A DNA stretch of 64,000 nucleotides from positions 16,013 to 80,012 of the forward strand of contig JAUWMT010000001.1 in the NCBI GenBank assembly GCA_030613025.1, given 5' to 3'. The DNA is from Candidatus Cloacimonadota bacterium. Its GTDB lineage: Bacteria; Cloacimonadota; Cloacimonadia; JGIOTU-2. How positions within the stretch are numbered: position 1 is the stretch's first letter; the number at the start of each line of letters is the position of its first letter. Shown here in pieces: positions 358 to 61,911 of this stretch. The translations under genes and the position numbers were made by a program. A model generated the notes under the pieces. That model was not told the origin of the DNA. It was given only the letters and a program-made list of their open reading frames with translations, and did no database searches.

Positions 358-2709
<2,352 letters not shown>

Positions 2710-2722
2710 AATTATCTTTCGC

Positions 2723-4411: not shown

Positions 4412-4440
4412 AATACTCCTAAAATGATCTGCTTCATATA

Positions 4441-5464: not shown

Positions 5465-5503
5465 ACTTAAGACTCCTTCCCGATATTTCGGGAGTGCTTG
5501 TGC

Positions 5504-5743: not shown

Positions 5744-5767
5744 GTATCCTCCTAATGGATCATAAAA

Positions 5768-6499: not shown

Positions 6500-6500
6500 A

Positions 6501-7331: not shown

Positions 7332-7349
7332 ATAATAAATTTTAGATTA

Positions 7350-8327: not shown

Positions 8328-8340
8328 GAAAACCTCCGTC

Positions 8341-13226: not shown

Positions 13227-14438
13227 ATGCTCAAAAGAATAGACACAGCTCAATCGGACGCACTTCTCAAGATTATACGGACAATTAATTCCCATCTTAA
13301 TCTTGATAAAGTGTTGGAATCTGTCATGGACGTGACCACACAGGCAATGCATGTTGAAGCATCTTCGTTAGTTCTGATCGATGAGGAAACGAACGATCTT
13401 CTATTCCATGTGACAGAAGGCGAAAAAGCAAAGATCATCAAAAAAATACGGATGAAAGCAGGTGAAGGTATTGTCGGATGGGTTATAAAAGAAGAAAAAG
13501 CGGTGCTCGTTAATGACGTGTCTAAAGACAAGCGCTTCTATAAAGCTGCTGATAAGAAAAGTGGCTTTATAACAAAATCAATACTCTGCGTTCCTATGTG
13601 CACTGCCGATAAATGCCTTGGAGCGATCGAGGTTATCAATAAGATGGATGGCAAAGATTTTGATGATGCAGATAGAATTTTTCTTGAAGCGATCTCTTCA
13701 CAGGCAGCCATTGCCATAGAAAATGCGAAACTCCACGATCGCATTGTAAAAAATGAACGGCTTGCCGCCATCGGGCAAACAGTCTCAGGACTTGCACATT
13801 GTATAAAAAACATACTAAACGGAGTCCAGGGCGGGTCTTATATTCTTGATCTTGGACTAAAGAAGGAAAATTTATCAAATGTTGGTAAGGGCTGGGGTAT
13901 CGTAAAAAAGAATAATGAATTCATCAAGGAACTCGTGCTTGACATGCTATCATATTCCAAAGAGCGAGAACCCGAATATGGAACTGTTGATGTGAACGAA
14001 CTTGTTAAAAGCGTCTGCGAACTTATGGAGCAAAAAGGTAAAGAAAAAAATGTTTCAATGCAATTTTTGCCGGAAGAATCTCTCAATGAAGTTGAGATCG
14101 ATGCTAAGGGAGTGAAACGTTGTGTTCTGAATCTCATTTCCAATGCCATCGATGCGTGTGAAGAAGTGGATAAATGCAATGTCGAGGTCTCAGTACAAAA
14201 TACAAGAGGTAAGATCTTCCGAATTCACGTTGCCGATTCCGGGGTTGGTATGTCGCCGGAAACGCAGACAAAACTATTCCAGGTTTTTTTCAGCACAAAG
14301 GGCTCAAAAGGCACAGGGCTTGGGCTTGCAGTTTCCTATAAGATCATAAAAGAGCATGGGGGAAATATTTCTGTTGACTCAGAAAAGGGGAAAGGTACAA
14401 AATTTACTATTACATTGCCAAAGAAAAGGAAAAAATAA
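13227..14438 (+). CDS. Cytoplasmic sensor histidine kinase containing a GAF domain
   Basis: An N-terminal GAF domain is followed by the H-box region LAAIGQTVSGLAHCIKN and a HATPase_c domain with the G-box GVGMSPE and GTGLGLAVS. No transmembrane helix is present. Confidence 0.85.
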   Translation: MLKRIDTAQSDALLKIIRTINSHLNLDKVLESVMDVTTQAMHVEASSLVLIDEETNDLLFHVTEGEKAKIIKKIRMKAGEGIVGWVIKEEKAVLVNDVSKDKRFYKAADKKSGFITKSILCVPMCTADKCLGAIEVINKMDGKDFDDADRIFLEAISSQAAIAIENAKLHDRIVKNERLAAIGQTVSGLAHCIKNILNGVQGGSYILDLGLKKENLSNVGKGWGIVKKNNEFIKELVLDMLSYSKEREPEYGTVDVNELVKSVCELMEQKGKEKNVSMQFLPEESLNEVEIDAKGVKRCVLNLISNAIDACEEVDKCNVEVSVQNTRGKIFRIHVADSGVGMSPETQTKLFQVFFSTKGSKGTGLGLAVSYKIIKEHGGNISVDSEKGKGTKFTITLPKKRKK

Positions 14439-14457
14439 ATAACGCCGGAGGTAAACA

Positions 14458-14856
14458 ATGGCAGATAATAAAAAGATACTTATAATTGATGACGAGCCGG
14501 ACGCAATTGCATTTTCAGAAGCAATGCTTTCTGAGCTTGGAGAATTTGAAATCGAGACTGCTATTAATGGTCTCGAAGGATTGCAGAAAGCCGAAGCGGT
14601 CAAGCCCGACCTGATCATTTTAGATGTGCAGATGCCTGTCATGAATGGTTTTCAAGTTTTTAAGGAACTTAAAAAAAATGATGTAACTGACACTATTCCC
14701 GTTATCATGCTTACCGGCATGGCAGCGACTACCGGACTTCGATATGATGCAAAAGACATGGGCATAACCCTTGGCTCCGAGCCCGAAGCTTATATCGATA
14801 AACCAGTTGAGCCAGAAGAGTTTCATAAAACCGTGAGCTCTATTCTCGGATTGTAA
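14458..14856 (+). CDS. Stand-alone response-regulator receiver (CheY-like)
   Basis: A 132-aa protein with the acidic pocket IIDDEPD, the phospho-acceptor aspartate in LIILDVQMP, and the motif YIDKP. Confidence 0.85.
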   Translation: MADNKKILIIDDEPDAIAFSEAMLSELGEFEIETAINGLEGLQKAEAVKPDLIILDVQMPVMNGFQVFKELKKNDVTDTIPVIMLTGMAATTGLRYDAKDMGITLGSEPEAYIDKPVEPEEFHKTVSSILGL

Positions 14857-14920: not shown

Positions 14921-17023
14921 ATGAAAAAGAAAAAACGAGGACTACAAAAGCAAATTTTAGCTCTCTATTTTTTGTTCACCTTTTCCCTTGTATTCATTCT
15001 GATCTTCAGCGTCTGGCAGCTTACCAAACTCGGTATTTCAGAATTTGAATATGAGAGAATTTCCCGCACGCTTACAAATCTAAAAACACTTCAGCTCGAT
15101 TATACAAACATGCTGAATAATTTTACCTCTGAAATCGCAACTACCCCTGATCTTATTACTTCAGCAGAAAATCAAGATGCTGTATCTATTCAATCAATAC
15201 TTAATTCCTATGATGATCATCCTCTCGCTAGCTACATGGCTCTCTTTGATGCAAATGGCACTATGCTTTATGGTGAATATTGGGAGCTTGTTGAATCTTT
15301 TCTGCCGGAAATGCTCTCTTTAGCAAAACAGAATACAACACAAGGTTTTTCTGCAAATTTTTCTAATAAGATATTCTATTTTGCCTACGCTCCGCTTTAT
15401 TCTGAAAACGATCAAGAGAAAACATTTTTAGGACTTTTTCTCAACGTAAGCCAGATCACTCCTTCTGAAATTGGAGCAGCTCGGGATCCTCAAATTTTTC
15501 TTTTGCCTTTTTCAGTGCCTCTCAATCCGGAGCAGGAGATCCTCAAGAAAATCATTCCCGAACTCGATAAAAAACTTCCCGCTGTATTAAAAACTAAAAA
15601 CCGTGAATCTGTTTTACGCTTAAATGCAGAAACTGCTGTTGGTCTTCTTATTAATTATAACATATTCGATGAGCCCGCTTCACTCACAGTGTATATTTAC
15701 GATCGAGAATTCAATAAATTCTCTCGCCAAAGCTTGCTCTTCTTTTTCCTTATTCTCCTAGCATCTACACTTGTTATCGTGAGTTTCCTTAGCAACTGGT
15801 TCAGTAGAAAAATAATGCGGCCAATAAAACAGATAAGTGAAAAAATGCAGAGGATTGAGAAAAACCCACTTGGTATTGAATATATTGAGGATGAATATGG
15901 CGGTGAGCTGAGCAATATGGTTTCTGCATTCAGCTCTATGAACAAAGCTCTTGTTGAATATCATAAATCTCTTCTGGAGTACAAAGTCCTTACTGATAAT
16001 ATTGATATTGGTGTACTGTGGATGGACTCAAAAATGAATATCCTTATTTGCAATCCAAGTGCAATGGACATTCTTGAACTCATATCCAATGATGAGATCA
16101 TCGGCAAGAATCTATCCGAATTTATCCGGTTAGATGAGGGTCTATTATCGATGGCTCATGAAGACAGCTTGACTCTTCCTCGACTCGAAATTAACTTTCC
16201 GGGGAAAAAGAAGTTCGTAAAATTCGTTATCCTGAATATTAAAGCTGTTGATGACACTATCGGCTTACGCATGGTTGCAACCATAACCGACATAACACAT
16301 GAAATAAATGAAAAAAGAGCCCGTGAAGCGCTTGAGATGGAAATCATAAAGAGTAACAAATTAGCTGAAATCGGAAGAAGGGTCGAGGGTGTGGTGCACA
16401 ATATGAACTCACCACTTAATTCAATTCTTGGGTATGCCCAGCTTGTAAAAAAAGAATATAAATACAATGACGATGTTGATAAGATAATTGATGCTGCAAA
16501 AAATATTTCACAATCCGTAAAAACTCTGTTACGAAAAGTGCAGCAGGACAATATTTCTATGATGCGCCCCATTGACATCAATCAGCTTATCGGGCAGGAA
16601 CTCGAGCTGTTGGAGCACAATCTTTTCTTTAAGCATTATGTTTTGTTAGAAAAAAATCTTTTTAAAGAACTCCCAACTGTGAAAGCGGTATATAGCGACA
16701 TTAGCCAGAGTTTTACTAACCTTGTAAATAATGCCATCGAGGCGATGCATGACAGCAAAGAACGAAATATCTGGGTACGTACATATCAAACTTCGGACTT
16801 TATCGCAATAGAAGTGCGCGATAGTGGAGAAGGTATTGAAGAGAAATATCAATCTAAGATATTTGAACCTTATTTTACATCGAAAAAGGGAAAAGAACAG
16901 GGCGGCTTTGGCCTTGGTCTTGCGATCTGTAAGAACATTGTCGAGCGTTATGGTGGTTATATTACCGTGCGCTCAGAACCGGATAAAGGAAGTACTTTTA
17001 CAATATTTCTTCCCTATGAATAA
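14921..17023 (+). CDS. Membrane sensor histidine kinase with a large extracytoplasmic domain and a PAS domain
   Basis: Two transmembrane helices flank a periplasmic domain of about 250 aa. This is followed by a PAS domain, the H-box VHNMNSPLNSILGYAQL, and a HATPase_c domain with the N and G boxes. Confidence 0.85.
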   Translation: MKKKKRGLQKQILALYFLFTFSLVFILIFSVWQLTKLGISEFEYERISRTLTNLKTLQLDYTNMLNNFTSEIATTPDLITSAENQDAVSIQSILNSYDDHPLASYMALFDANGTMLYGEYWELVESFLPEMLSLAKQNTTQGFSANFSNKIFYFAYAPLYSENDQEKTFLGLFLNVSQITPSEIGAARDPQIFLLPFSVPLNPEQEILKKIIPELDKKLPAVLKTKNRESVLRLNAETAVGLLINYNIFDEPASLTVYIYDREFNKFSRQSLLFFFLILLASTLVIVSFLSNWFSRKIMRPIKQISEKMQRIEKNPLGIEYIEDEYGGELSNMVSAFSSMNKALVEYHKSLLEYKVLTDNIDIGVLWMDSKMNILICNPSAMDILELISNDEIIGKNLSEFIRLDEGLLSMAHEDSLTLPRLEINFPGKKKFVKFVILNIKAVDDTIGLRMVATITDITHEINEKRAREALEMEIIKSNKLAEIGRRVEGVVHNMNSPLNSILGYAQLVKKEYKYNDDVDKIIDAAKNISQSVKTLLRKVQQDNISMMRPIDINQLIGQELELLEHNLFFKHYVLLEKNLFKELPTVKAVYSDISQSFTNLVNNAIEAMHDSKERNIWVRTYQTSDFIAIEVRDSGEGIEEKYQSKIFEPYFTSKKGKEQGGFGLGLAICKNIVERYGGYITVRSEPDKGSTFTIFLPYE

Positions 17024-17038
17024 AAGTGAAATTTAACT

Positions 17039-18463
17039 ATGAAAAATGATGAGATCCAGACAGAATTCTTCAAACAAAATGCCAAAATCCTCATAGTAGA
17101 TGACGAACAGGATACATTGGATATTTTCCGCCGTCACCTCGAAGATGAATATCATATCGACACAGCTCATTCTGCTGAAGAAGCACTTGAAAAGTTAGAG
17201 AACAACACCTATCATATTGCAATGACGGATATGGTTATGCCGGGAACAGACGGTATCGAGCTTCTGACACAGATAAAGAAACGCTTGCCCCATGTTGCCG
17301 TTGTTATGATAAGCGGAAAAGCTACCATCGGAATGGCTGTTGAAGCTATGAAAATCGGCGCTGAAGAATTTATAGAAAAACCGGTTGAAGATCTCGATCT
17401 GCTGAAGATCATCATAAAAAAAATCCTCAAAACCAAGTGGCAGCATGAGGAAATTAAGCGCCTTAGAAGTATTCTAGCTCAGGAATTTGACCGCACCCAG
17501 ATTATTGGCAACAGTCTTGCAATTCAAAAAGTCATGGAAAAAGTGAAGCGCATCGCCCATCTTGACACGACTATTCTTGTTACCGGTGAAACGGGAGTGG
17601 GCAAAGATCTTTTTGCCGATCTTATCTATCTTAATAGTAAAAGAAAAGCGCAAAAATTTGTAACAGTTAACTGTGGCGGATTACCAGAAAATCTTCTTGA
17701 AAGTATGCTTTTTGGTCATAAAAAGGGCTCGTTCACTGACGCTATAAGAGATAAAGTCGGCTATTTCCAGGAAGCAGACGGGGGTACGCTTTTCCTTGAT
17801 GAAATAACAGAAACCAACAAGACTTTTCAGGTAAAACTTCTGCGCGTTCTTGAGAAAGGTGTGGTCAGACCGGTCGGTGCTGATATGGATATTGAAGTTA
17901 ATGTGCGCATTATCACCTCAACAAATAAGGACATTGAAAAGGAAGTAAAAGATGGCAATTTCCGTCAGGATCTTTACTACCGCCTTAATGTCATTCATCT
18001 TCACATCCCACCTCTTCGCGAAAGAAGAGAGGATATTCCGCTTCTTACCAATGCATTTTTACGAGAGTTTAGAAAGAAATATGACAAATCAAACCTTGAA
18101 ATCTCTGATACTGTTATGTCCGTCCTTATCTCCCGGGAATGGGAAGGAAATATTCGTGAACTGAAAAATACAATCGAGCATGCGGTTGCAATGGCAACTC
18201 ATAATAAAATTGTGCTGGAAGATCTTCCGGGCAATATATATATGAAGCTTGGAGCTGTTGAGAATAAATTAAACAACCTGGTGAACTTATCTTTTTCTGA
18301 AGCGAAGGATACTTTTGAAAAGAATTATGTTGAAGAAATTCTGATAAAATGTAATGGTGATGTGACAAAAGCATCAGAACTTTCCGGTATTAAGCGTCCA
18401 AATCTCTACGAAAAATTTAACAAGCACAATATTGACGTGAACAAGTATAGAAATAATTCGTAA
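17039..18463 (+). CDS. Sigma-54-dependent response regulator (NtrC/PilR-type bacterial enhancer-binding protein)
   Basis: An N-terminal receiver domain (LIVDDEQD, with Asp in AMTDMVMPG) is followed by an AAA+ sigma-54 interaction domain with the Walker A motif GETGVGKD, the GAFTGA-like motif GHKKGSFTDA, and ESELFGHEKG-like residues. A C-terminal HTH is present. Confidence 0.9.
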   Translation: MKNDEIQTEFFKQNAKILIVDDEQDTLDIFRRHLEDEYHIDTAHSAEEALEKLENNTYHIAMTDMVMPGTDGIELLTQIKKRLPHVAVVMISGKATIGMAVEAMKIGAEEFIEKPVEDLDLLKIIIKKILKTKWQHEEIKRLRSILAQEFDRTQIIGNSLAIQKVMEKVKRIAHLDTTILVTGETGVGKDLFADLIYLNSKRKAQKFVTVNCGGLPENLLESMLFGHKKGSFTDAIRDKVGYFQEADGGTLFLDEITETNKTFQVKLLRVLEKGVVRPVGADMDIEVNVRIITSTNKDIEKEVKDGNFRQDLYYRLNVIHLHIPPLRERREDIPLLTNAFLREFRKKYDKSNLEISDTVMSVLISREWEGNIRELKNTIEHAVAMATHNKIVLEDLPGNIYMKLGAVENKLNNLVNLSFSEAKDTFEKNYVEEILIKCNGDVTKASELSGIKRPNLYEKFNKHNIDVNKYRNNS

Positions 18464-18550
18464 TCTCTTTTCCTCATGATAAAAAAGTACATCGGATACC
18501 AATAGAGCAAATGCCTGCATCCGTTCGAATAAAGCGTAACTGCGTTATGT

Positions 18551-18600
18551 TTTTATTACACCCTGTGGGTTTGTGTTATTTTTTTATTACACTCCGTGTT
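18551..18600 (+). promoter_or_regulatory. Tandem direct repeat (TTTTTATTACAC-YC-YGTG, two copies about 32 bp apart). This is a candidate upstream activator (enhancer) site for the adjacent enhancer-binding protein.
   Basis: The first copy TTTTATTACACCCTGTG lies at about 18551-18568 and the second copy TTTTTATTACACTCCGTG at about 18583-18600. They sit roughly 100-150 bp upstream of a -24/-12-like element. Confidence 0.4.
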
Positions 18601-18701
18601 GATTTCTCTAAATCCCTTATTCGTTAAATAATATAAAAATAAGCACAAAAATAGCGATAATTCTGATCATTACGAATATTTAAACAAATCATTTCAGTCT
18701 T

Positions 18702-18717
18702 TGGCACGATATTTGTA
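18702..18717 (+). promoter_or_regulatory. Candidate sigma-54 (-24/-12) promoter for the pilin-like gene
   Basis: The element reads TGGCAC-gatat-TTGT. It matches TGGCAC-N5-TTGC at the -24 GG and the correct spacing, but the -12 GC is replaced by GT. It lies about 70 nt upstream of the ATG at 18789. Confidence 0.4.
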
Positions 18718-18788: not shown

Positions 18789-19190
18789 ATGGGAACTCAA
18801 CAAATTCTGCTCATTGTTTTGAGCGTAATTATCGTAGGTATCGCTGTGGCTGTTGGTATTACAATGTTTAATGCCCAGTCAGTGAATTCAAACCGCAATG
18901 CATGTATTGCTGACATGAACAACTTCGCTGCCAGTGCTCTTGCATTTTACAAAACCCCCACAAGTCATGGTGGTGCAGGTTCAACAATAGGAAATGTTGT
19001 GGATTCTACAGTTTGCAACTATATTGGTGTAGGTTATACTGCCCCTAATCAACTCAGTACTGATAATGGTACATACACTATTACATTGGCTGGCACCGTC
19101 CTTACTTTTACAGCTGCTGGAACTGAATCAGGTGTAACCCCTGTAACTACTGTTGATTTTAGTTCTAGTGCCATTGCAACTACACCATAA
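18789..19190 (+). CDS. Small pilin-like protein with an N-terminal hydrophobic helix. It is a putative major subunit of the downstream type IV filament system and has no canonical prepilin leader.
   Basis: The 133-aa protein starts MGTQQILLIVLSVIIVGIAVAVGITMF and continues into a Gly/Thr-rich, probably beta-stranded, C-terminus that contains 2 Cys. A strong ribosome-binding site AGGAGG precedes it. It is followed by an intrinsic terminator and sits directly upstream of pilC- and pilB-like genes. Confidence 0.5.
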   Translation: MGTQQILLIVLSVIIVGIAVAVGITMFNAQSVNSNRNACIADMNNFAASALAFYKTPTSHGGAGSTIGNVVDSTVCNYIGVGYTAPNQLSTDNGTYTITLAGTVLTFTAAGTESGVTPVTTVDFSSSAIATTP

Positions 19191-20863: not shown

Positions 20864-22648
20864 ATGTTAGGTAAATCACGCTTAGGAAAATCACTCGTTG
20901 ATAATGGAATCATTGATAAAGATATTCTTAACAAGGCGCTTATTATTCAGGCAGACGAGGACCCATACAATCCCAGAAGGTTAGAAGATATTCTTGTTAC
21001 GGACCTTAGGATCAAACATGATGATGTATACGGTCTTCTGGCTGATTTGTATGCTTTCAGAAAAGTTGATATTAATATAGATAAAATTGACCAAACACAA
21101 ATTGATCATACAAAAGATATACTTGCAAAATTTCCAGATGAACTGAAAAGAGAATTGCTCTATAAAAAGGTGCTTCCTTATCAGATTGCGCAAGGACGTC
21201 GATCAACACTCATCCTTCTTGCAGCTGACCCGACTGACAAAATTGTTGAGAAAATCCCACTCAATACTGAATTTAAAAAATATGAGGTTGCCTATTGTAA
21301 GCTCTCTACTATTGAAGAGCTTATCACGCTCATTGCTCCTCAAAAAAATGAATTCTTAGAACTCCTCAGCGAAGCCGGTGAGCAGATAGAGGAAGTAAAA
21401 GAAGAGGGCCAGGAAGAGAAAGTCGATGAATATGCTCTTGATGATGAGATCAATAAGAGCTTACTCGTCAATCTCTTTGAGGGTAGTCTTATTGAAGCTG
21501 TTAGAAAAGGCGCAAGTGACATTCATATCATACCATATAAACGCTCAAATGTAGACTTTTTATTCCGGGTGGATGGCAAACTTCATCAATGGCACCGACA
21601 GGAAAAAACCTCTCCTGAAGCCATTGCAGCAGTGGTAAAAGATAGGACAAACGGGATTGACAGATTTGAAAGAGATAATGCACAGGATGGTTTTGCACAG
21701 CGTATTGTTGATGGCTATTTGATCCGATTTCGTATTTCTGTTCTTCCAATTATCTCTGCTGAGTACGAACGCCGCTTTGAAAGTATCGTGATACGTGTAG
21801 TTGATGACAGAAATGTCATCACAGACCTTCAAAAATTGGGTCTTCAAAAACAAGCAGAATCAGATTTCTTAAAAGCAGTTAATAAATCAAAAGGCATTGT
21901 ACTTCTGACCGGTCCTACTGGAAGTGGTAAAAGCACGACCCTCATGGCTGCGCTTCATCATGTGATCGATCCTACTAGAAATGTGCTCACCTGCGAAGAC
22001 CCTGTCGAGTATGTTATCAAAGGAGCACGGCAATTGAAGATCGGAGCGAAGATGACCTTTGAGCAGGCAATTCGCTCAATCCTTCGTCATGATCCGGATA
22101 TTGTAATGGTTGGTGAGATTCGTGATAAGATCACCGCAGATGTAGCAGTAAAACTTGCAAATACCGGCCATTTAACTTTCTCTACACTACACACAAATGA
22201 TGCCCCAAGTGCGATATCCCGTTTATATAAAATGGGTGTTGAGACCTTCCTTCTTGCCTATGCAATGAATATTATTATTGCCCAGCGTCTTGTCAGAAAA
22301 CTCTGCCCCGAATGCAGGCGTCCACTTTCGCGAGACAAATACAAAGGAGCTCTCGAACTGGGTCTCACGGAACAAGATTTGAAAAAGGGGTTAGTATATG
22401 AAGCTGGTCCCGGCTGTAAAAAATGTATGGATGGTTATAAAGGACGCGTGAACATCTGCGAAGCTCTATATTTTACAGATGAGATCAGAAAAGCGATCAT
22501 GGAATCCGGTAAAGAAATCGACGAAGATAAAATCCGCAAAATTGCAGAAAGTCAAGGCATGCTTTCTCTTCATGATTCCGGACTGGATAGAATCCGCAAA
22601 GGACTTACCTCTGTTTCTGAGGTGTCCTATGCGACTTCTGAAGGATAA
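20864..22648 (+). CDS. pilB: Type IV pilus assembly ATPase (PilB/GspE family)
   Basis: An N-terminal GspE_N-like domain is followed by the Walker A motif LLTGPTGSGKSTTL, Asp and His boxes (VGEIRD), and the tetracysteine motif CPECRR...CKKCMDGY. The protein is 594 aa. Confidence 0.9.
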   Translation: MLGKSRLGKSLVDNGIIDKDILNKALIIQADEDPYNPRRLEDILVTDLRIKHDDVYGLLADLYAFRKVDINIDKIDQTQIDHTKDILAKFPDELKRELLYKKVLPYQIAQGRRSTLILLAADPTDKIVEKIPLNTEFKKYEVAYCKLSTIEELITLIAPQKNEFLELLSEAGEQIEEVKEEGQEEKVDEYALDDEINKSLLVNLFEGSLIEAVRKGASDIHIIPYKRSNVDFLFRVDGKLHQWHRQEKTSPEAIAAVVKDRTNGIDRFERDNAQDGFAQRIVDGYLIRFRISVLPIISAEYERRFESIVIRVVDDRNVITDLQKLGLQKQAESDFLKAVNKSKGIVLLTGPTGSGKSTTLMAALHHVIDPTRNVLTCEDPVEYVIKGARQLKIGAKMTFEQAIRSILRHDPDIVMVGEIRDKITADVAVKLANTGHLTFSTLHTNDAPSAISRLYKMGVETFLLAYAMNIIIAQRLVRKLCPECRRPLSRDKYKGALELGLTEQDLKKGLVYEAGPGCKKCMDGYKGRVNICEALYFTDEIRKAIMESGKEIDEDKIRKIAESQGMLSLHDSGLDRIRKGLTSVSEVSYATSEG

Positions 22649-23725: not shown

Positions 23726-25594
23726 GTGCCCATGGGCAAAGCAGTTTTGATAATGATAATACTCCTTGCCGTGATCGTCGTTGTGGCGACTGTAACTGTT
23801 TCAGTTGAAAGAAAGGCTGATGTTATTCCAGAAAAGCTCGCAGAGAATGAAGTACGATCCGACCTGATAAATCTTGGAGCTTATGCTCTCAAGTGGGGTA
23901 TTAAACAAGTCCGCAATGAAAATATCACCGAATCAAATTCATCCATTTTTGATGATGAAAGTAGTTCTTATCATTATGCATTTTTTGATGTTCCTGCTCT
24001 TGACGGAAGTATCGATATGATCACCTATGAATTTGGCGATACTCTGACTGTCGAAGGAGGTGGTGGTGAAGGAGAGGAAGAAGAAGAGGAGGAAGAAGGC
24101 GTTACAATACCATCTCTTGATATGGTTTTTGCAAATGGAGCAATTACTCTTACCGGCAGCGCGAGTATCAATGGAACAACAGGAACTAACTCCACTGTTG
24201 ATAACAGTGTTAATTTTGCATGGAGCACACAGGTTGATGGTGATTTTTATGTAGGACCCGGCGCTGATTATACAAGTGTGATCAACTCTGCTGGGTGGGG
24301 ACGTGTACCAGAGGATAACATTACGGGTACAATTTCTAATCTACCTGCAACGAGAACTTATCCTCTTCCCACTTATCCTAATTTCCCGGAACTAACCGAT
24401 CAAGGTTCTTTCAGTACACCATGGACTCCTTCAGGAGAATATCTTATTGATGATGACGGATATTATTCTTCAATAAGTGCCACAAGCAGCAGAACGATCA
24501 CGATCGATGTGGGATCCGGTACCAGAAGAATAGTTGTCGGAAGTCTTAGTGTTGGGCAAGGATATATTGAACTTCTGGGAACCGGCGATCTTATATTTTA
24601 TGTTGAAAATTCATTTTCCCTTACAGGAAGCAGTATTATCAATACCGGCGGTGATGCAAGCAAGGTTCATATGTACTACTCGGGTGCAACAGACCTGAAT
24701 TTCGCCGGTGCGACCGCATATAATGGTTCTATTTATATTGAAACTGCCAATATTCACATAGGTGGTTCGGGCGGTATTACTGGTCATATTATTTGTGGCG
24801 GCTCAACGGTTGACGTCACTGGTGCAGCAAATGCCTATGTGAGAGCACTGTATGCCCCAAACGCAGCAGCATCAATTACCGGCTCCGGAAGTATTAGCGG
24901 AATCCTTGTAGCAAACACCATTTCTGTTTCTGGCAGTGGAAATATAACTGCTGATAACAGCTGGGCAGATCCGGTACCCGACATCGAAGATGATGAAGAT
25001 GAAGAAGCTTCAGAAGTTGCTGGATTTTATACAGTCCAGCTTGACATCACGGCACTTGTAAGTGAAGATGAATATGGAAATGAAACGGATCATACAAGCT
25101 TCGCAACTGTTCTCTTCAGCTATTCCGGCGGTGAATCAGAAGAGGAAGAAGAAACTCCAGCCCTTTCAATGGAAGCAGATCTTCATATAAATCCCACAAA
25201 CAATTCTTCTAAACGTTTTCAGATGCAAACGCCAAGTGGGCAGATAGATAGAGGAACGCTCCTTTCGGGCGGTTCATCATATACATACTCTGGTTCTGCA
25301 ACAGAAATTAGACTACAACCAAAATCAGACGGAAGAACTATTACTGTAAATGGAAGCGACATAACCCTCGCCACAAGTACCGCTTATACAATAACCTCAG
25401 ACAGCATGACCGTAAATCTTAGAAACTCTCACGGACCTGGAAATGCAATGGGTCATTGGTGGATTGAAATAACCTGCACCGACCCGACAGTTTCACCAGA
25501 TCCGGGGCTTCCTGAACCTGAAGAGGAAGAACCGGAAGAAGAAATTGGAGAAATAACCTTAGAGGACATCGAAATCCTCTACTGGCAACCGTAA
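23726..25594 (+). CDS. Large pilin-like or tip-associated protein with poly-Glu tracts and Gly/Ser/Thr-rich beta-helix-like repeats
   Basis: The 622-aa protein has an N-terminal transmembrane helix MPMGKAVLIMIILLAVIVVVATV. It contains acidic runs (GGGGEGEEEEEEEEG, DIEDDEDEEASE, ESEEEEET, PEPEEEEPEEE) and a repetitive region (ITGSGSISGILVANTISVSGSGNITAD). A strong ribosome-binding site AGGGGGTG precedes it. Confidence 0.5.
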   Translation: MPMGKAVLIMIILLAVIVVVATVTVSVERKADVIPEKLAENEVRSDLINLGAYALKWGIKQVRNENITESNSSIFDDESSSYHYAFFDVPALDGSIDMITYEFGDTLTVEGGGGEGEEEEEEEEGVTIPSLDMVFANGAITLTGSASINGTTGTNSTVDNSVNFAWSTQVDGDFYVGPGADYTSVINSAGWGRVPEDNITGTISNLPATRTYPLPTYPNFPELTDQGSFSTPWTPSGEYLIDDDGYYSSISATSSRTITIDVGSGTRRIVVGSLSVGQGYIELLGTGDLIFYVENSFSLTGSSIINTGGDASKVHMYYSGATDLNFAGATAYNGSIYIETANIHIGGSGGITGHIICGGSTVDVTGAANAYVRALYAPNAAASITGSGSISGILVANTISVSGSGNITADNSWADPVPDIEDDEDEEASEVAGFYTVQLDITALVSEDEYGNETDHTSFATVLFSYSGGESEEEEETPALSMEADLHINPTNNSSKRFQMQTPSGQIDRGTLLSGGSSYTYSGSATEIRLQPKSDGRTITVNGSDITLATSTAYTITSDSMTVNLRNSHGPGNAMGHWWIEITCTDPTVSPDPGLPEPEEEEPEEEIGEITLEDIEILYWQP

Positions 25595-25598
25595 AATC

Positions 25599-26489
25599 AT
25601 GGGAAAAGCAATTCTTGTCATCTCTCTTTTGTTACTTACCGTCGTAGTAGGCATTGTCATCTCCAGCGGTAAACGTGGCGGTGACGTTCCGGAAATCATC
25701 ACTGATGATATTGCACAGATACAAGCACGCTCACTTTCAAATTATGCGCTTCAATATGGTATAAGACAGCTTCTGAAGGGAAATGTCACATTTGTAGACA
25801 GCACGCGCGGTACAATTAATAACTTTGCACCCCTCGATGTTTTAGATGGTACTATAGATAGTATTATTTATTCACCTGCTACCGATGGAACGATCCGTGT
25901 AGATTCTTATGTGAGTTATCTCGAGTTGGAATCTCTGGTTAGTCATCACGGTTATGCACGATTTGGTTTTTATACAGACGAGGGGGCGGTTCTTAGCATC
26001 ACCGCTGCAATTGTTACGGGTGGTTCAATAACTGTTAAAGCCCAAGCAGTTATTAGTGGTATAGTTGTTGAAGATTCCACCTTCGATTTTGCCGGTGTTT
26101 TCGGTATGACAGAACAAGAATTTAAGGATGAGTGTATCTCGCGGGGCTCGTATATTGAAACTCCTGCCAATAATGAACCAATGCCTGATAGTCTGACCTG
26201 GATGAATGACGATTTACGAGTCCAGAGTAACTGGTCAGGGGCAGGAATTCTCGTTGTGAATGGTGATTTTAATGCAACTGCTCAAATTACTTTTGACGGA
26301 ATACTGGTCGTTTTTGGCGAACTCACCATTGGGGCTCACTCTAATATCACCGGTGCTGTGTATGTGATAGGGGATGCAACAGTTGGTGCTCATGCTGTTA
26401 TTAGCTTCGATGCAGATGTTGTTTCGGACGCCTTTGATGCTCTTCCTATAAACATCTCTTTAGAAATAGCGGAGTGGAATGAAGGATAA
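25599..26489 (+). CDS. Paralogue of the preceding protein (pilin-like N-terminus, beta-helix-like C-terminus)
   Basis: The 296-aa protein starts MGKAILVISLLLLTVVVGIVISS, which resembles the MPMGKAVLIM... start of its neighbour. Its C-terminus ITGAVYVIGDATVGAHAVISFDADVV is similar to repeats in the neighbour. Confidence 0.5.
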   Translation: MGKAILVISLLLLTVVVGIVISSGKRGGDVPEIITDDIAQIQARSLSNYALQYGIRQLLKGNVTFVDSTRGTINNFAPLDVLDGTIDSIIYSPATDGTIRVDSYVSYLELESLVSHHGYARFGFYTDEGAVLSITAAIVTGGSITVKAQAVISGIVVEDSTFDFAGVFGMTEQEFKDECISRGSYIETPANNEPMPDSLTWMNDDLRVQSNWSGAGILVVNGDFNATAQITFDGILVVFGELTIGAHSNITGAVYVIGDATVGAHAVISFDADVVSDAFDALPINISLEIAEWNEG

Positions 26490-26514
26490 AAAATAAATAA
26501 ATAAGGATAAACTT

Positions 26515-27414
26515 ATGGAGCAAATTAGATTATTAGATTCGGAAAAATTGATGTTTTTCTGGTGGTTAAAAATTCGCTGGTTTATTGTGCTCATACTTTT
26601 TGCGATCGGCTTACTTCGCATTGGCATGGTTAGCCAAACTATTCCTGTAGTCGTTTTTGTTGGTGCATTCCTCGGTATAAGCGTTCTCAATATTCTTTTT
26701 CATCTTCAGATCATTACTTCCAATAATATTATCGGAGCTACTCAGATCGTGCTAGATATTATTTTTGGAACCATAGTTGTTCATCTTACTGGTGGACTTG
26801 ACAGCTCGTTCGTTTGGATTTACCTCGTTGCGGTTGTCACTGCGAGTTTATCGATCGAAAAAGCAGGTGGTTTTATTGCGGCTATGATCGGAGGTATGAG
26901 CTTGCTGGTGCTAATTTTAATGTATAACTTCGGCTGGCTTTTGCCCGTTAATGGTAATGTATATAATTCAGATGTTGCGATCCAGACGATCTTTCTTATA
27001 TCCTACACGGGATTGTTCACTGTAATTGCTTTCATCTCAAGCTATACCAGCAATATAGTTAGAAAGCTTTCACTTAAAGTGCTGGAAGCGAATGACAAGC
27101 TCAAGAACCAGGAAGATTATTTACTGGATAAGGAAAAAAAGATGGTTATCGATGAAAAGCAAATCAAGGATTATAAAGAAGTCGTGCAAGTTTCGTCAAA
27201 TCTTGCTGGAATCGACCATGATATCAATAATCCTCTAAGCATCATCTCGCTTTCTTTAAGCAGAGTAAAAAGAGCGGCAAGCGAATATAATGATGAAAAG
27301 CTTCACAAATCCAGCAATCAAATTACAGAAGCGATAAATAAGATCAATGGTATCCTCGTACGGCTGCAAGATTTGAAGCGGCTACCTCTGATCAAGCAGG
27401 CAAGAAAAAAATAA
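26515..27414 (+). CDS. Polytopic membrane protein with a C-terminal HisKA (dimerisation/phosphoacceptor) domain and no ATPase domain
   Basis: About 5-6 transmembrane helices are followed by a coiled coil and the H-box NLAGIDHDINNPLSIISLSLSRV. The ORF ends about 60 aa later, so no HATPase_c domain is present. Confidence 0.6.
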   Translation: MEQIRLLDSEKLMFFWWLKIRWFIVLILFAIGLLRIGMVSQTIPVVVFVGAFLGISVLNILFHLQIITSNNIIGATQIVLDIIFGTIVVHLTGGLDSSFVWIYLVAVVTASLSIEKAGGFIAAMIGGMSLLVLILMYNFGWLLPVNGNVYNSDVAIQTIFLISYTGLFTVIAFISSYTSNIVRKLSLKVLEANDKLKNQEDYLLDKEKKMVIDEKQIKDYKEVVQVSSNLAGIDHDINNPLSIISLSLSRVKRAASEYNDEKLHKSSNQITEAINKINGILVRLQDLKRLPLIKQARKK

Positions 27415-27432
27415 ATCTGTCAGGATATTTAT

Positions 27433-28284
27433 ATGCAAAAACACATTTTAATCATCGATGACGAGGAAAGCATCAGAGAGCTGTGTAAAGAATTTTTGGA
27501 AGAAGACGGCTATAAGGTCACTCTTGCTGTTGACGGTCAAGATGGTCTTGATAAAATGAACTATGATGACTTTGATCTCTACATGATTGATATGGTCATG
27601 CCCCGCCTGGATGGGCTGGAAACCATGAAGCGTATCAAGAAGAAGCAACCCCTTGCCGTGATCATCATCACTACAGGATTTTCCAGTATCGAAGGTGCGG
27701 TAAAAGCAGTTCATGCTGGTGCGTTTCAGTATCTTTCCAAACCCATCAATGCAGAAGAACTTCTCGAAGCAGTAAAAAAGGGGGTGCAATATGGAGAAGA
27801 TCTATACGGTCCTCTTCAAAAAGCCTTTGAACCCGGAACTGAAGGCACAAAAAATGAGCCGGCTATGCTGCATGGATTCACCAAAGAAGAGAAGGTTGAT
27901 TTTTTGGCAATTGGAAGGGCACGCAAATTTGAAGCCGGTCAAACTATTGCTCTTGATAACGAAAACTCTGATTCAATCGTGCTTGTAGAATCCGGTGAAG
28001 TATCCATCTGGCTAAGTAATAACACCGTTGACTATCTCCGAAAGAATGATTCCTGGGCAGAAGAAAACTTCATACTGGCAAATTCCGAATTCACTACTCT
28101 TCGATCCGAAACAGCATGTATGATACGTTTTTTCGAAAGAAAGAAGCTTCTTGACTTCTTCGCCTACAAGGGCGAGCGTCTGATGAAACGGTTCATGATC
28201 AACCTCATTAATTGTCTCTTTTCAAAATGGAGAAAATCCATTCAACGTATTGTCATGCTCAAGCTCGTAACCGGAGAAAAATAA
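27433..28284 (+). CDS. Response-regulator receiver domain fused to a cyclic-nucleotide-binding-like (cNMP/Crp-type) domain
   Basis: The receiver domain has ILIIDDEES, the acceptor aspartate in LYMIDMVMP, and YLSKPI. The C-terminal ~120 aa (FLAIGRARKFEAGQTIALDNENSDSIVLVESGEVSIW...) resemble a cNMP-binding beta-barrel. Confidence 0.6.
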   Translation: MQKHILIIDDEESIRELCKEFLEEDGYKVTLAVDGQDGLDKMNYDDFDLYMIDMVMPRLDGLETMKRIKKKQPLAVIIITTGFSSIEGAVKAVHAGAFQYLSKPINAEELLEAVKKGVQYGEDLYGPLQKAFEPGTEGTKNEPAMLHGFTKEEKVDFLAIGRARKFEAGQTIALDNENSDSIVLVESGEVSIWLSNNTVDYLRKNDSWAEENFILANSEFTTLRSETACMIRFFERKKLLDFFAYKGERLMKRFMINLINCLFSKWRKSIQRIVMLKLVTGEK

Positions 28285-28358
28285 TCTTTCTTCAAGATCA
28301 ATTTATTTATGATATTGAATATGATAATCAACAATAACAAAGCATAGGCAGGTCTGCT

Positions 28359-29573
28359 ATGGGTTTATCATTTACACCGGAATTGCTTGTTGGTTTACCC
28401 GAATACTTAACTGGAACAAACCGTTTCCAGAACATTAATAAAATCATAACCTACAATGCTGCGTGGCGTGAAGAAGCATACGAACATCTTCGTAAACTTC
28501 TCAAGTACATGCGGGAAATAGATGCTTCTGACCTTGATATTGGCGGTCCCGGCTCAAACAATAATGTGTGGTACAGAATTTACGGAACTAAATCGCCCAA
28601 CAAGGAGATGCCTCATTATAATAACGATGAGGTAACAGCGATCCTTCTCAGCGTGCTTTCCGATGACCAGAAAGTGCTTCTTTTTAAAGATAAAAACGTT
28701 GACCTTTCTGTCGGTATGGTTCTTGAAGAAGGAGAACGATCGAGCAGGTTCCGTAGCGATATCTATTATGAAAGCAATGTACTTGTAGGAAACTTCCGTA
28801 GGATCAATCAAAATCTCTTTAAAATTGAATCTCTTGGATTTCCACTACCGATCATGCAAAGAATGGATCTGCAATATGAAAAATCCGGGCTCATCCTCAT
28901 TACCGGTATTACCGGTTCGGGAAAGAGCAGCACTTTGGATTCTATTATAGACATGAACAATCATAATAATGATGCACATATTATAATTCTTGGCGCACCC
29001 ATTGAGTATGTTCATAAGTCTGATAGGTGTATTCTTCGTCACAGGGAGGTCGGTGAAGATGTGCTTTCCTTTAAGAATGGTGTTGTTCAAGCTTTACGGC
29101 AAGATCCCGACATTATAATTGTCGGCGAGATGAGAGAGCCGGACACCATCGCCAGAGTGCTGGAAGCAACAGACAGTGGACATAAAGCATTTTCAACTCT
29201 GCATACAAGCTCTGCTATTGATAGTATTCATAGAATTGTAGGTGAATTCCCGACAAGAGAACAGGAGCGAATTCGTCTTCGCCTTGCTGATACGCTCTCT
29301 GTCATTATTTCTCAAAAATTGGTCCCAAATATACAAGGCAAACGAAGTCTCGCAAAAGAAATTCTTTCTGTGACACCTTCTGTAAAAGCAGCAATCCGAA
29401 ATCAGAATATTAATGAGATATATCAGATGATCACTGAAGGAAAAAAATACGGCATGATAACACTCGAACAGGATCTTTTCAATCTGCATAAGAAAGGTGA
29501 AATCTCAAAAGAGGTTGCTATGAACTACTCTAATAATAGAAAAAGAATGCAGCAGCTTCTAACTTACTCATAA
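28359..29573 (+). CDS. pilT: Type IV pilus retraction ATPase (PilT/PilU family)
   Basis: Contains the Walker A motif LILITGITGSGKSSTL, the Asp box GEMRE, and the His box AFSTLHTSSA. The protein is 404 aa with an N-terminal extension of about 60 aa and no tetracysteine motif. Confidence 0.85.
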   Translation: MGLSFTPELLVGLPEYLTGTNRFQNINKIITYNAAWREEAYEHLRKLLKYMREIDASDLDIGGPGSNNNVWYRIYGTKSPNKEMPHYNNDEVTAILLSVLSDDQKVLLFKDKNVDLSVGMVLEEGERSSRFRSDIYYESNVLVGNFRRINQNLFKIESLGFPLPIMQRMDLQYEKSGLILITGITGSGKSSTLDSIIDMNNHNNDAHIIILGAPIEYVHKSDRCILRHREVGEDVLSFKNGVVQALRQDPDIIIVGEMREPDTIARVLEATDSGHKAFSTLHTSSAIDSIHRIVGEFPTREQERIRLRLADTLSVIISQKLVPNIQGKRSLAKEILSVTPSVKAAIRNQNINEIYQMITEGKKYGMITLEQDLFNLHKKGEISKEVAMNYSNNRKRMQQLLTYS

Positions 29574-36304: not shown

Positions 36305-36340
36305 TTAAATGTTTAAAAAATATTCATGCAGGAGGATGCA

Positions 36341-39766: not shown

Positions 39767-39776
39767 ATAATACTTT

Positions 39777-39810
39777 GGGAAGGGAGCTAATGCTTCCTTC
39801 CCTCTTTTAT
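39777..39810 (+). terminator. Rho-independent terminator
   Basis: A stem GGGAAGGGA / TCCCTTCC(C) is followed by TCTTTTA, immediately after the stop of the 1141-aa gene. Confidence 0.6.
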
Positions 39811-39828
39811 AGAAATACAGGGACAACC

Positions 39829-40596: not shown

Positions 40597-42174
40597 ATGA
40601 ATGAAATAGAAAAAACAACTCTCCTCAGTAAAGAAGAAGAATATCTCCAGCTTAAAAAAGCAGTAGAAACAATGAAATTAGGTGTTACTATTTCAAACAC
40701 AAAGGGTGAAATACTATACACTAATCCTGCAGATGCACATATGCATGGATGTGAACCCGATGAATTAATCGGCAAAGATGTTCGTATTTTTGCTACTACA
40801 AAGAAATTACAGCCATGGAAGATGGACCAAGTTATGGAATGGAAAGGTATGACAAGGGAAAGTAATAATATCACTCAGAATGAAAAGTCCTTTCCGGTTC
40901 GTCTTGTTTCAGATATAGTGAGAAATGCCGAGGGTTTTCCGATCGCTGTTGTTACCATATGTGAAGATATTACAGAATCCAAAAAACTTGAGCAAGAGTT
41001 AAAGGAAAGTGAAGAGAAACTTCGTCAAACACAAAAGATGGAAACTATAGGTCGTCTTGCCGGTGGAGTTGCGCACGATTTCAATAATCTCCTCACGGCA
41101 ATAAATGGACGCTGCGATCTTCTCCTTCGGAAATTGAATGAATCAGATCCGATGCATGGTGAGCTGAAAGAAATCCGCAAAGCCGGTGGCAGAGCGGCTT
41201 CATTGACTAAGCAACTTCTCACTTTCAGCAGGCAGCAAATAATCGAACCAAGTACCCTCAATCTAAATAAAGTAATTGAAGATGTTCGAGATATGCTTCA
41301 AAGATTGATTGGCGAGGACATAATTTTAAATACTGAGTTTGAGGATAATGTATTTATAAAAGCAGATAGTAATCAGATTGATCAGATCCTCATGAACCTT
41401 GCTGTGAATGCGAGAGATGCTATTCATAATGGTGGAAAACTTACAATTAAAACCTATTCTTATACTATTCATGACGGTGAAATTATTGGACACGTTGAAT
41501 CACTTAGTCCAGGGAATTATGCTGTCATTGACGTGACTGATACCGGTTCCGGGATGAATAAGGATACTATTTCTCGAATATTTGAGCCCTTCTTTACAAC
41601 AAAGAAAGTAGGCAAAGGTACTGGACTCGGTCTTGCAACTGTATATGGGATCATAAAGCAAAGTAATGGCGGAATCGAAGTTGACAGCCAAATTGGTAAA
41701 GGTACTACTTTCAGAATCTATTTTCCCCGAATTGAACCGGTTGAGGAAGAAGTCTTTGAGCATGAAAAAACAGAGATCACCCCAATTGAGTCAGCATCTG
41801 TAGATAAACAATATACTATTCTACTTGTCGAAGACCAGGAGATGGTTCGGGACCTCGTTACAGAAATTCTTGAATACGAGGGTTTCAAGGTTATTACCGC
41901 TTATAACGGCTTAAATGCACTTGAAGTCACAAAAGAGTATACAGATACAATCGACCTTATGCTTACTGATGTTATTATGCCGGAAATGAACGGAAGAGAA
42001 CTGGCTAAAAGAATAGAGGTCGAAAAGCCTGAACTCAAAATTATTTTCATGTCCGGCTATACCGGCGAAGAGATGCGAAATCGGGGTGTGCTCGAACCGG
42101 GGACTAATTTTATTCAAAAGCCCTTTACTCCTGATGCTTTAGTAGATAAAGTACGTGAAGTTCTTAACAGCTAA
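40597..42174 (+). CDS. Hybrid sensor histidine kinase (PAS, HisKA, HATPase_c and a C-terminal receiver domain)
   Basis: A PAS domain (ILYTNPADAHMHGCEPDELIGKDV) is followed by the H-box LAGGVAHDFNNLLTAI, a HATPase_c domain (DTGSGMNKDT; GTGLGLATV), and a receiver domain (ILLVEDQEMVRD...LMLTDVIMPEMNG...IFMSGY). Confidence 0.85.
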   Translation: MNEIEKTTLLSKEEEYLQLKKAVETMKLGVTISNTKGEILYTNPADAHMHGCEPDELIGKDVRIFATTKKLQPWKMDQVMEWKGMTRESNNITQNEKSFPVRLVSDIVRNAEGFPIAVVTICEDITESKKLEQELKESEEKLRQTQKMETIGRLAGGVAHDFNNLLTAINGRCDLLLRKLNESDPMHGELKEIRKAGGRAASLTKQLLTFSRQQIIEPSTLNLNKVIEDVRDMLQRLIGEDIILNTEFEDNVFIKADSNQIDQILMNLAVNARDAIHNGGKLTIKTYSYTIHDGEIIGHVESLSPGNYAVIDVTDTGSGMNKDTISRIFEPFFTTKKVGKGTGLGLATVYGIIKQSNGGIEVDSQIGKGTTFRIYFPRIEPVEEEVFEHEKTEITPIESASVDKQYTILLVEDQEMVRDLVTEILEYEGFKVITAYNGLNALEVTKEYTDTIDLMLTDVIMPEMNGRELAKRIEVEKPELKIIFMSGYTGEEMRNRGVLEPGTNFIQKPFTPDALVDKVREVLNS

Positions 42175-61895: not shown

Positions 61896-61911
61896 CGAAG
61901 AACTACTTTTC

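Follow-up and report, generated by a model that had tools for sequence, protein, structure and literature searches.

A conserved membrane DHp protein lacking a catalytic domain is paired with a receiver–CNB regulator in the type IV pilus cluster of Cloacimonadota

A 64,000-nucleotide stretch from a Candidatus Cloacimonadota bacterium (GenBank assembly GCA_030613025.1, contig JAUWMT010000001.1, positions 16,013 to 80,012 of the forward strand; hereafter the window) carries a type IV pilus cluster in which two adjacent genes lie between pilB and pilT (Table 1). The first encodes a 299-amino-acid (aa) membrane protein that ends in a dimerisation/phospho-histidine hairpin (DHp) and lacks the catalytic ATP-binding domain (CA, HATPase_c) of a histidine kinase. 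The second encodes a response regulator of 283 aa in which a receiver (REC) is joined to a cyclic-nucleotide-binding (CNB)-like domain. Both open reading frames (ORFs), which an initial annotation had called from the sequence alone, were recovered at the same positions.

Table 1 Features of the DHp/regulator module and the surrounding pilus cluster (positions within the window)
Feature	Position	Strand	Basis
CA-less PilS/RegB-type membrane DHp protein, 299 aa	26515..27414	+	ORF, Pfam, homolog clusters, AlphaFold
Six-helix transmembrane sensor domain, aa 9–178	26539..27048	+	AlphaFold, invariant columns, 6TM_PilS match
Signalling helix, aa 179–225, continuous with TM6, leads into DHp	27049..27189	+	AlphaFold
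DHp (HisKA) helical hairpin, aa 226–290	27190..27384	+	HisKA match, AlphaFold helices
H-box DHDINNPL	27214..27237	+	Sequence, conservation; His235 codon 27217–27219
Response regulator, REC + CNB-like domain + C-terminal helix, 283 aa	27433..28284	+	ORF, Pfam, model
Receiver domain, aa 1–120; acceptor D53 codon 27589–27591	27433..27792	+	Response_reg, conservation, fold
CNB-fold beta-barrel, aa 150–246	27880..28170	+	cNMP_binding, family profile, model
Degenerate phosphate-binding cassette, aa 209–227	28057..28113	+	Alignments, column counts
Basic amphipathic C-terminal helix, aa 248–283, highly conserved	28174..28284	+	Conservation, model
GAF histidine kinase (403 aa) + single-domain receiver (132 aa)	13227..14856	+	Domain matches
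Sensor kinase HK700, HAMP-PAS-HisKA-HATPase_c, candidate phosphodonor	14921..17023	+	Domains; synteny
NtrC-type sigma54 activator, PilR-like	17039..18463	+	Response_reg, Sigma54_activat, HTH_8
Sigma54-type -24/-12 element TGGCACGATATTTGT	18702..18716	+	One mismatch to TGGCAC-N5-TTGC
Candidate major pilin	18789..19190	+	Position, size; N-terminal conservation
pilB, pilus extension ATPase	20864..22648	+	T2SSE 332 bits; TIGR02538 type_IV_pilB 405 bits
Four pilin-like ORFs, 144, 184, 622, 296 aa	22651..26489	+	N-terminal hydrophobic segment each; one with DUF7305
pilT, pilus retraction ATPase	28359..29573	+	TIGR01420 pilT_fam 315.7 bits
Hybrid kinase PAS-HisKA-HATPase_c-REC, far end of cluster	40597..42174	+	Domain matches

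Searches of the 299-aa protein against Pfam and NCBIfam at E ≤ 1 returned no HATPase_c, and its Pfam matches were confined to 6TM_PilS (PF25323; 23.9 bits, residues 40–174) and HisKA (26.5 bits, residues 230–290), both of which just missed their cut-offs of 27 and 26.9 bits, respectively. Orthologs pass both thresholds, scoring 28.1–37.2 bits for 6TM_PilS and 31.6–32.6 bits for HisKA, and essentially every homolog carries PF25323 in its precomputed annotation. A weak match to the NCBIfam ActS/PrrB/RegB family (NF033792) over residues 13–285 covered the first 259 of 423 profile positions, corresponding to the transmembrane (TM) domain and DHp only, and its 25.7 bits lay far below the cut-off of 350. 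In the AlphaFold model (pLDDT 74), six TM helices (residues 9–36, 42–63, 71–91, 100–114, 119–138, and 154–178) are followed by DHp helices alpha1 (233–258) and alpha2 (261–288), with TM6 extending as a single helix from 154 to 231 and no globular C-terminal domain after alpha2. The model predicts a sensor coupled to the DHp through a continuous helix, as in regulated kinases. A fold search with this model against the PDB was uninformative, with a best E-value of 0.33 and a faint likeness to other six-TM signalling proteins, among them 8wcn and 7yzk. The chain stops 64 residues past the phospho-acceptor His235, and 18 nt separate its stop codon from the next ATG. These results bear out the initial description of an H-box membrane protein devoid of a catalytic domain and, because this domain is missing, the protein cannot autophosphorylate, as had also been proposed.

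The Cloacimonadota homolog set comprised the best 120 of 165 clusters from a 5.8-billion-protein collection, and residue counts were taken over 121 sequences. Proteins of these 120 clusters are 275–318 aa long (median 302; identity 53–100%), none has HATPase_c, and wherever the source names give a taxon it is always Cloacimonadota; the greatest resemblance of the window is to Candidatus Celaenobacter antarcticus (87% identity for the 299-aa protein). With homolog E-values as low as 1e-180, the observation is therefore not a matter of chance. Residues H235, N238, and N239 were found in 121/121 sequences, D236 in 117 and an acidic residue at this H+1 position in 118, and D234, L241, and R21 in TM1 were likewise invariant, leaving the phosphatase motif H-[D/E]-x-x-N complete in the 299-aa protein. 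The sensor domain also carries the motif VHLTGGxxSxFxWIYL, and the segment between TM3 and TM4 reads GGLDSSF in the window protein and GGxxS[SP]F across the family.

A profile search of 1.84 billion representatives yielded 20 matches below 1e-30, each of at most 324 aa, with a sharp break in score between the short family (at least 118 bits) and ordinary full-length kinases of 440–590 aa (at most 74 bits). A second clade of 64 clusters, from KSB1 or Calditrichaeota wherever a taxon is given, comprises proteins of 216–341 aa, the shortest of which are likely fragments; they stop 69–97 residues past the His and have no HATPase_c. The phospho-acceptor His is present in 61 of 63 second-clade members and is replaced by Asn in P0437 (QNELNDPL), which sits on a 950-kb contig, and in P0449 (RNQLINPL), which retains the H+4 Asn despite the loss. 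Using six CA domains as tblastn queries (three from the window kinases and three from full-length PilS/RegB-like relatives; E ≤ 10), no match was obtained in any frame of 26000–29000, and the only CA domains of the window, at ~14.0–14.4, 16.6–17.0, and 41.3–41.8 kb, belong to three complete kinases. These comparisons indicate an ancient and strongly constrained truncation in a family under purifying selection, for which the missing catalytic domain is the defining trait. As ancestor of the 299-aa protein we propose a six-TM sensor kinase of the PilS/RegB type that permanently lost its CA domain, leaving the membrane sensor, the signalling helix, and the DHp hairpin.

The neighbouring regulator has an intact receiver. 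Response_reg matched with 105.7 bits, the REC fold superimposed on solved receivers in Foldseek (rmsd 1.2–1.9, TMt 0.9), and the active-site residues D9, D10, D53, T81, and K103 were present in 121/121 sequences, in agreement with the earlier call of an intact acceptor Asp. Because receivers dominated the Foldseek search with the whole regulator model and the C-terminal domain was uninformative there, a profile search was carried out with the C-terminal domain alone. In addition to a match of the regulator to cNMP_binding (PF00027; 30.9 bits, above the cut-off of 27.5), the profile of the C-terminal half found CNB domains in PKG (E 3e-20 as a sum over four domains), in PKA RI-alpha (1.5e-6), and in CRP (6e-3), and the modelled succession of helix, beta-barrel, and helix (alpha-beta-alpha) is that expected for CNB. 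Profiles and model together confirm the predicted CNB fold.

The phosphate-binding cassette of this fold is degenerate. In every alignment the G-E of the cassette falls on a family GEE (AEE in the subclade of the window), and the RSAT of the PKG cassette falls on a variable EFTT/stst stretch, which reads EFTT here. Column 219, the equivalent of the canonical Arg, holds Arg in 0/121 sequences and Thr or Ser in 84, with E210 kept in 119/121. L223, R224 (120/121), and E226 are invariant or nearly so; R224 lies five residues downstream of the Arg-equivalent column, inside modelled strand beta7, and by our reading of the sequences would align with CRP R87 and not with the cassette Arg. As the phosphate-binding Arg is absent from all 121 sequences, canonical cAMP/cGMP binding is doubtful, and with it the cyclic-nucleotide coupling that the initial annotation had envisaged; a different ligand or a pure protein-interaction role of the CNB-fold domain is more likely. 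No helix-turn-helix (HTH) family matched the regulator at E ≤ 1, and the chain stops ~35 residues past the barrel with a single helix, modelled for residues 248–280 with low confidence past residue 266, in which F254, I256, N257, N260, W266, R267, K268, R272, I273, M275, L276, K277, and L278 are invariant. Lacking an HTH, the regulator is therefore not a Crp-type transcription factor, and of the Crp-like nucleotide-binding domain first ascribed to it, the fold was upheld and the rest was not.

Pairing of the two genes is strict. Counted over loci of species-representative genomes, the regulator gene comes directly after the DHp gene in 45/45 cases, at a median distance of 17 nt and with overlapping genes at L002 and L005; an upstream pilB is present in 34/34 and a pilT after the regulator in 41/44. 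This link to pilB and pilT, which had been read from the window, is strongly conserved, with four pilin-like ORFs intervening between pilB and the pair in the window; the label 'orphan' given to the 299-aa protein was misleading, both for its tight pairing with the regulator and for the complete kinases in the cluster. The typical Cloacimonadota order begins with a kinase that ends in, or is followed by, a receiver, then HK700, the NtrC-type activator, pilin, pilC, and pilB, and continues with zero to four pilin-like genes, the CA-less DHp gene, the REC–CNB gene, pilT, a TPR-fused protein at the PilMNO position, and secretin. The number of pilin-like ORFs differs by genome, and in L018 and L025 none separates pilB from the module. 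The second clade has the swapped order pilB, regulator, DHp protein, and pilT (L007, L088, L089, L090), and the regulators share the C-terminal domain (32% identity over full length; hhalign probability 97%). In these lineages the DHp/regulator module is an old and fixed part of the pilus cluster, and its position makes a switch between extension and retraction plausible. Scans for sigma70 promoters and terminators around the module gave matches no commoner than in shuffled sequence, and the two module genes are not separated from pilT by a terminator.

Some loci depart from this arrangement. At L057 (936–2189; candidate division KSB1 bacterium 4484_87), the place of the REC–CNB regulator between pilB and the CA-less DHp gene is taken by single-domain receivers, three in tandem (133, 118, and 129 aa). 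A divergent Cloacimonadota subclade (L008, L049, L053, and L058; 37–41% identity where the match is near full length) retains the DHp/regulator pair and has no pilT between regulator and TPR protein. Among the neighbouring genes of the window, the 622-aa pilin-like protein (23726–25594), which has a hydrophobic N-terminus, several poly-Glu runs and DUF7305, is represented by proteins of 288–401 aa in other genomes. Residues 6–60 of PilB match an MshE-type c-di-GMP-binding motif weakly (NF053729; 20.7 bits against a cut-off of 38). The protein at the PilM/N/O position (29581–32421) has 946 aa and two TPR blocks compared to ~700 aa in most other Cloacimonadota, and this points to a TPR region that was duplicated internally in the lineage of the window.

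Two CA-bearing kinases, three receiver proteins, and a single DHp-only protein are encoded in the cluster, which leaves the REC–CNB regulator without a kinase of its own. A scan for Hpt domains, confined to window ORFs of at least 120 aa, found none. The H-box of HK700, VHN[MLI]NSPLN, is conserved in 13 loci and has Asn at H+1 instead of the usual acidic residue. Wherever the locus reaches far enough (window, L008, L018, L025, L050, and L053), the gene before HK700 encodes a kinase that either has a receiver at its end or is succeeded by one, and the position of the GAF kinase holds a hybrid kinase ending in REC in L008, L018, L025, L050, and L053. The DHp of the 299-aa protein showed 28% identity over 58 aa to that of HK700 (pairwise E 0.004) and no similarity to the GAF kinase, and a close DHp paralogy with the cluster kinases, which would have hinted at heterodimers, was rejected on these values. 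Comparison of the regulator's receiver with the cluster receivers did not discriminate between them (35% identity to the NtrC-like, 32% to the hybrid, and 29% to the CheY-like receiver). Positions at the interface of DHp and receiver vary only along the main clade split, so that covariation between them would mirror phylogeny and not coupling.

The sigma54-type element TGGCACGATATTTGT is intergenic and lies 73 nt upstream of the ATG of the candidate pilin. Ahead of it, two direct repeats of the form TTTTTATTACAC(C/T)C(T/C)GTG near 18550 and 18582 could be sites for the NtrC-like activator; repeats and element together occupy 18547–18716. The candidate pilin begins with MGTQQILLIVLSVIIVGIAVAVGITMFNAQ, and these 30 residues are identical in distant Cloacimonadota (window 18789–19190; L002 3486–3911; L005 3375–3836; L008 4021–4428), the other cluster proteins of these genomes being only 53–75% identical. 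It lacks the canonical Gly/Phe...Glu5 prepilin motif, and no prepilin peptidase was seen in the window. Because a sigma54-type element precedes the pilin, HK700 and the NtrC-like protein plausibly fill the transcriptional role of PilS–PilR, and the CA-less protein and its regulator would constitute a second, non-transcriptional layer of pilus control.

The three roles offered by the initial annotation, those of a phosphatase, a phosphotransfer intermediate, or a partner of another kinase, are all still in contention. As autophosphorylation is impossible, a phosphatase role is proposed for the 299-aa protein. We tentatively favour, while stopping short of calling it probable, a phosphatase or phosphoryl sink that is gated by a membrane signal and serves the adjacent regulator; the regulator would then act on the pilus machinery. 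With the receiver of the regulator docked on the DHp dimer, the phosphoryl group of Asp53 would be removed, or reversibly taken up, by way of the intact H-[D/E]-x-x-N motif. H-[D/E]-x-x-[T/N] is the phosphatase motif of HisKA proteins, and an HK853 construct without a CA domain was reported to retain phosphatase activity in vitro (PMC7005713). Control of this activity would fall to the highly conserved six-TM domain. By analogy with PilS, the membrane signal that it would sense is most plausibly the pilin pool of the inner membrane; a quinone/redox or lipid cue of the RegB kind is the alternative. PilS is the closest characterised relative of this domain, and its six TM segments bind PilA, promoting phosphatase activity on PilR (10.1101/323923). 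Both the six-TM domain and the N-terminus of the candidate pilin are extremely conserved. In addition, a sensor domain suits a regulated enzyme better than a passive shuttle, and the loss of the His in two of the 63 second-clade members, one of which keeps the H+4 Asn, agrees with a role for which phospho-His is not strictly required.

According to this phosphatase model, the phosphoryl group on the regulator would come either from one of the CA-bearing kinases of the cluster, HK700 or the GAF/hybrid kinase, or from a small-molecule donor. Devoid of a DNA-binding domain, the regulator would target PilB, PilT, or the platform at the post-translational level via its C-terminal helix and a CNB-fold domain that probably does not bind cAMP or cGMP canonically. 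We infer such a target from gene position and from the precedent of Rre6, a PilG-type regulator whose phosphomimetic form binds PilT2 in Synechocystis (PMC7656254). Transcription of the pilin would be governed separately, by HK700 and the NtrC-like activator through the sigma54 promoter.

Several points weigh against this model. Model HisKA kinases owe their full phosphatase activity to stimulation by the CA domain together with ADP (PMC7005713), and a bare DHp may therefore be a weak phosphatase. The near-invariant His235 and the acidic H+1 exceed what a pure phosphatase would need and point to real phospho-His chemistry, be it relay or trans-phosphorylation. The kinases named as phosphodonors of the regulator are candidates; the similarity of the DHp to that of HK700 is low, and the receiver is clearly nearest to no single partner. 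Since the pilin is devoid of the canonical Glu5, a charge contact of the PilS–PilA type with the Arg in TM1 is not simply transferable. Finally, it is gene position that suggests the putative direct effect on PilB or PilT.

The main rival explanation, which we regard as a serious possibility though an unlikely one, is that the 299-aa protein is a membrane-anchored histidine phosphotransferase in a four-step phosphorelay resembling those of Spo0B or ChpT. A hybrid kinase, or the GAF kinase with its single-domain receiver, upstream of the cluster would phosphorylate its receiver, from which the phosphoryl group would travel to His235 and on to Asp53 of the regulator, gated by the six-TM domain. 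Such a relay would account for the conservation of the His and of the acidic H+1 and for the composition of the cluster, in which a regulator without a dedicated kinase, a receiver-linked kinase ahead of HK700 at every locus that reaches far enough, a further hybrid kinase (40597–42174), and one DHp-only protein occur together and no Hpt domain was detected, the scan having covered only the window ORFs of at least 120 aa. DHp four-helix bundles can indeed be phosphotransferases, as Spo0B and ChpT illustrate (PMC3433190), and Galperin et al. raised this possibility for 'HisKA, no HATPase' proteins (PMC5847659). However, Spo0B and ChpT are soluble and have a pseudo-CA domain that is absent here, a dedicated sensor domain is atypical of a pure phosphotransferase, and two second-clade members have lost the His. 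Orthology between the GAF kinase and receiver of the window and the hybrid kinases found elsewhere is weak (28–37% identity), and at the KSB1 locus L057 the DHp protein is paired with three CheY-like receivers.

Relay and phosphatase functions might also be combined, and we give this idea some weight while thinking it rather improbable: the six-TM domain would read the inner-membrane pilin pool, or some other membrane state, and gate the DHp as a bidirectional phosphoryl valve between a hybrid kinase and a motor-binding REC–CNB regulator, thereby setting the balance of extension and retraction post-translationally.

Considerably less likely is that the 299-aa protein is one half of a split or heteromeric kinase, being either trans-phosphorylated by another CA domain, for example that of HK700, or engaged in a RetS–GacS-like heterodimer that modulates a full kinase. 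An acidic residue at H+1 is needed for autophosphorylation, and this position is conserved as acidic in the CA-less protein (Asp in the window) and is Asn in all HK700 orthologs; both are membrane proteins of one cluster and share an H-box of the flavour H-x-[IM]-N-[NS]-P-L. Split kinases of the CheA type take part in pilus control in the case of Hik36/Hik43 (PMC7656254). Yet the low DHp similarity to HK700, and its absence for the GAF kinase, means that nothing suggests a shared dimer interface, HK700 has a complete DHp of its own with His and an adjacent cognate NtrC-like regulator, and at L088 and L090 the 10 kb upstream of the module are free of CA-bearing kinases.

We consider it quite improbable that the protein is a RocA-like pseudokinase or scaffold, which would perform no phosphoryl chemistry and use its TM segments and DHp to bind another kinase or the pilus platform. 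RocA likewise consists of six TM helices and a DHp, its His is dispensable, and a CA-less form complements when overexpressed (PMC7028121); the two His losses in the second clade would be compatible with such a role. A whole H-box, D-H-D-x-N-N-P-L, that is invariant or nearly so over 121 sequences is hard to explain without catalysis, however. The strict pairing with a receiver protein that has kept its active site likewise speaks against a scaffold. Lastly, a pseudogene, frameshift, or assembly error truncating an ordinary PilS-like kinase, a concern raised with the initial annotation and prompted by the unusual architecture only, has next to no chance of being correct and was ruled out by the equal length and stop position in ~180 independent clusters that span two phyla and numerous assemblies, the 18-nt distance to the next gene, the lack of CA-like sequence in any frame, and a residue conservation that implies purifying selection.

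One of the closest known systems is PilS of Pseudomonas aeruginosa, with which the 299-aa protein shares the six-TM PF25323 domain, a HisKA DHp hairpin with an H-x-x-x-N phosphatase motif, and the location in a type IV pilus cluster, and whose pilin-triggered phosphatase mode, exerted via the TM segments (10.1101/323923), is the functional model adopted here. In contrast to PilS, it has neither PAS nor CA domain, which places it outside PilS proper, its adjacent partner is a REC–CNB protein and not an NtrC-type PilR, and the NtrC-type regulator of the cluster is paired with HK700, a HAMP- and PAS-containing kinase that is not of the six-TM type. By analogy, the 299-aa protein may work like a PilS locked out of kinase mode. 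From RegB/PrrB/ActS it is set apart by the low family score (25.7 bits versus 350), the missing CA domain, a partner that is not of the RegA type, and an origin in a lineage of anaerobic fermenters; common to both are six TM helices joined directly to the DHp without a PAS. The GGxx(S/N)xF between TM3 and TM4 may be akin to the GGXXNPF quinone-site motif of RegB (PMC3000548).

By its combination of a sensor with HisKA, a conserved His, and no recognisable HATPase, the protein falls under the definition of the 'HisKA, no HATPase' or 'possible incomplete histidine kinases' class (P2CS; PMC5847659), for which phosphoacceptor, phosphotransfer, and phosphatase roles were suggested (Galperin et al. 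2018, PMC5847659). Members of that class come mainly from Archaeoglobi and Methanomicrobia, have cytoplasmic PAS/GAF sensors and no conserved functional context, and are without experimental characterisation, whereas the present family has a six-TM membrane sensor and, in two bacterial phyla, a fixed pilB/regulator/pilT context. The phosphotransferases Spo0B (Bacillus) and ChpT (Caulobacter) are dimeric DHp four-helix bundles that shuttle phosphate between receivers and are unable to autophosphorylate (PMC3433190); judged from sequence and model, the 299-aa protein would share with them a DHp-type hairpin, a phosphorylatable His, and an inability to use ATP. Unlike these soluble proteins, which have no sensor domain and keep a degenerate CA-like alpha/beta domain, it is membrane-anchored and ends after the DHp. 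RocA, an accessory protein of CovS in group A Streptococcus, is comparable as a six-TM and DHp non-kinase that modulates a two-component pathway (PMC7028121), but its His is dispensable, its H-box is less constrained, it keeps a degenerate CA, and it has no adjacent cognate receiver. The regulator, in turn, resembles PilG/PilH-type and Rre6-type receivers, which have no DNA-binding output and act on PilB or PilT (PMC7656254). These are fed by CheA-type kinases of chemosensory arrays, in contrast to the CNB-fold domain and CA-less HisKA partner found here.

Outside the module, an otherwise ordinary F-type atp operon (357–7733) includes a c-subunit ORF of 243 aa with three ATP-synt_C matches (5768–6499, minus strand), which suggests a fused, multi-hairpin c subunit. 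Genes for bactofilin, an M23 peptidase, ParB, ParA, GidB, and MnmG (7956–13047, minus strand), together with a turn of the cumulative GC skew at ~12–16 kb, suggest that the window lies near the replication origin. The secretin gene is directly followed by large surface proteins with type IX secretion sorting domains (34412–40545), which contain LVIVD repeats or beta-helix/CarboxypepD_reg/Por_Secre_tail domains, and, further along, by a 1683-aa C25 gingipain-like peptidase (56970–62021, minus strand).

Cloacimonadota are abundant in anaerobic digesters and anoxic waters, and databases label ATPase-less proteins of the present kind 'incomplete kinases'. In the literature searched, no function was assigned to histidine-kinase-like proteins that have a phospho-histidine domain and no ATPase, and no paper was found on a bacterial, pilus-linked, six-TM CA-less family or its REC–CNB partner. 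While the class itself is already known as 'HisKA, no HATPase', the DHp/regulator module would represent a previously undescribed layer of type IV pilus control. It also shows that a receiver can take as its output a CNB-fold domain in which the canonical contacts to a cyclic nucleotide are missing. If the phosphoryl-valve reading holds true, the 'HisKA without HATPase' class would gain its first assigned function, and Spo0B and ChpT a counterpart anchored in the membrane. The family is a clean test case, combining a constrained ancient truncation with an obvious partner, a process (type IV pilus assembly and retraction) that gene context fixes in two uncultured phyla, and proteins small enough for biochemistry. 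Settling whether it is a gated phosphatase, a membrane phosphotransferase, or a kinase subunit would give a mechanism for a whole class of mis-annotated 'histidine kinases', and the same answer would reveal how pili are controlled in Cloacimonadota and KSB1/Calditrichota.

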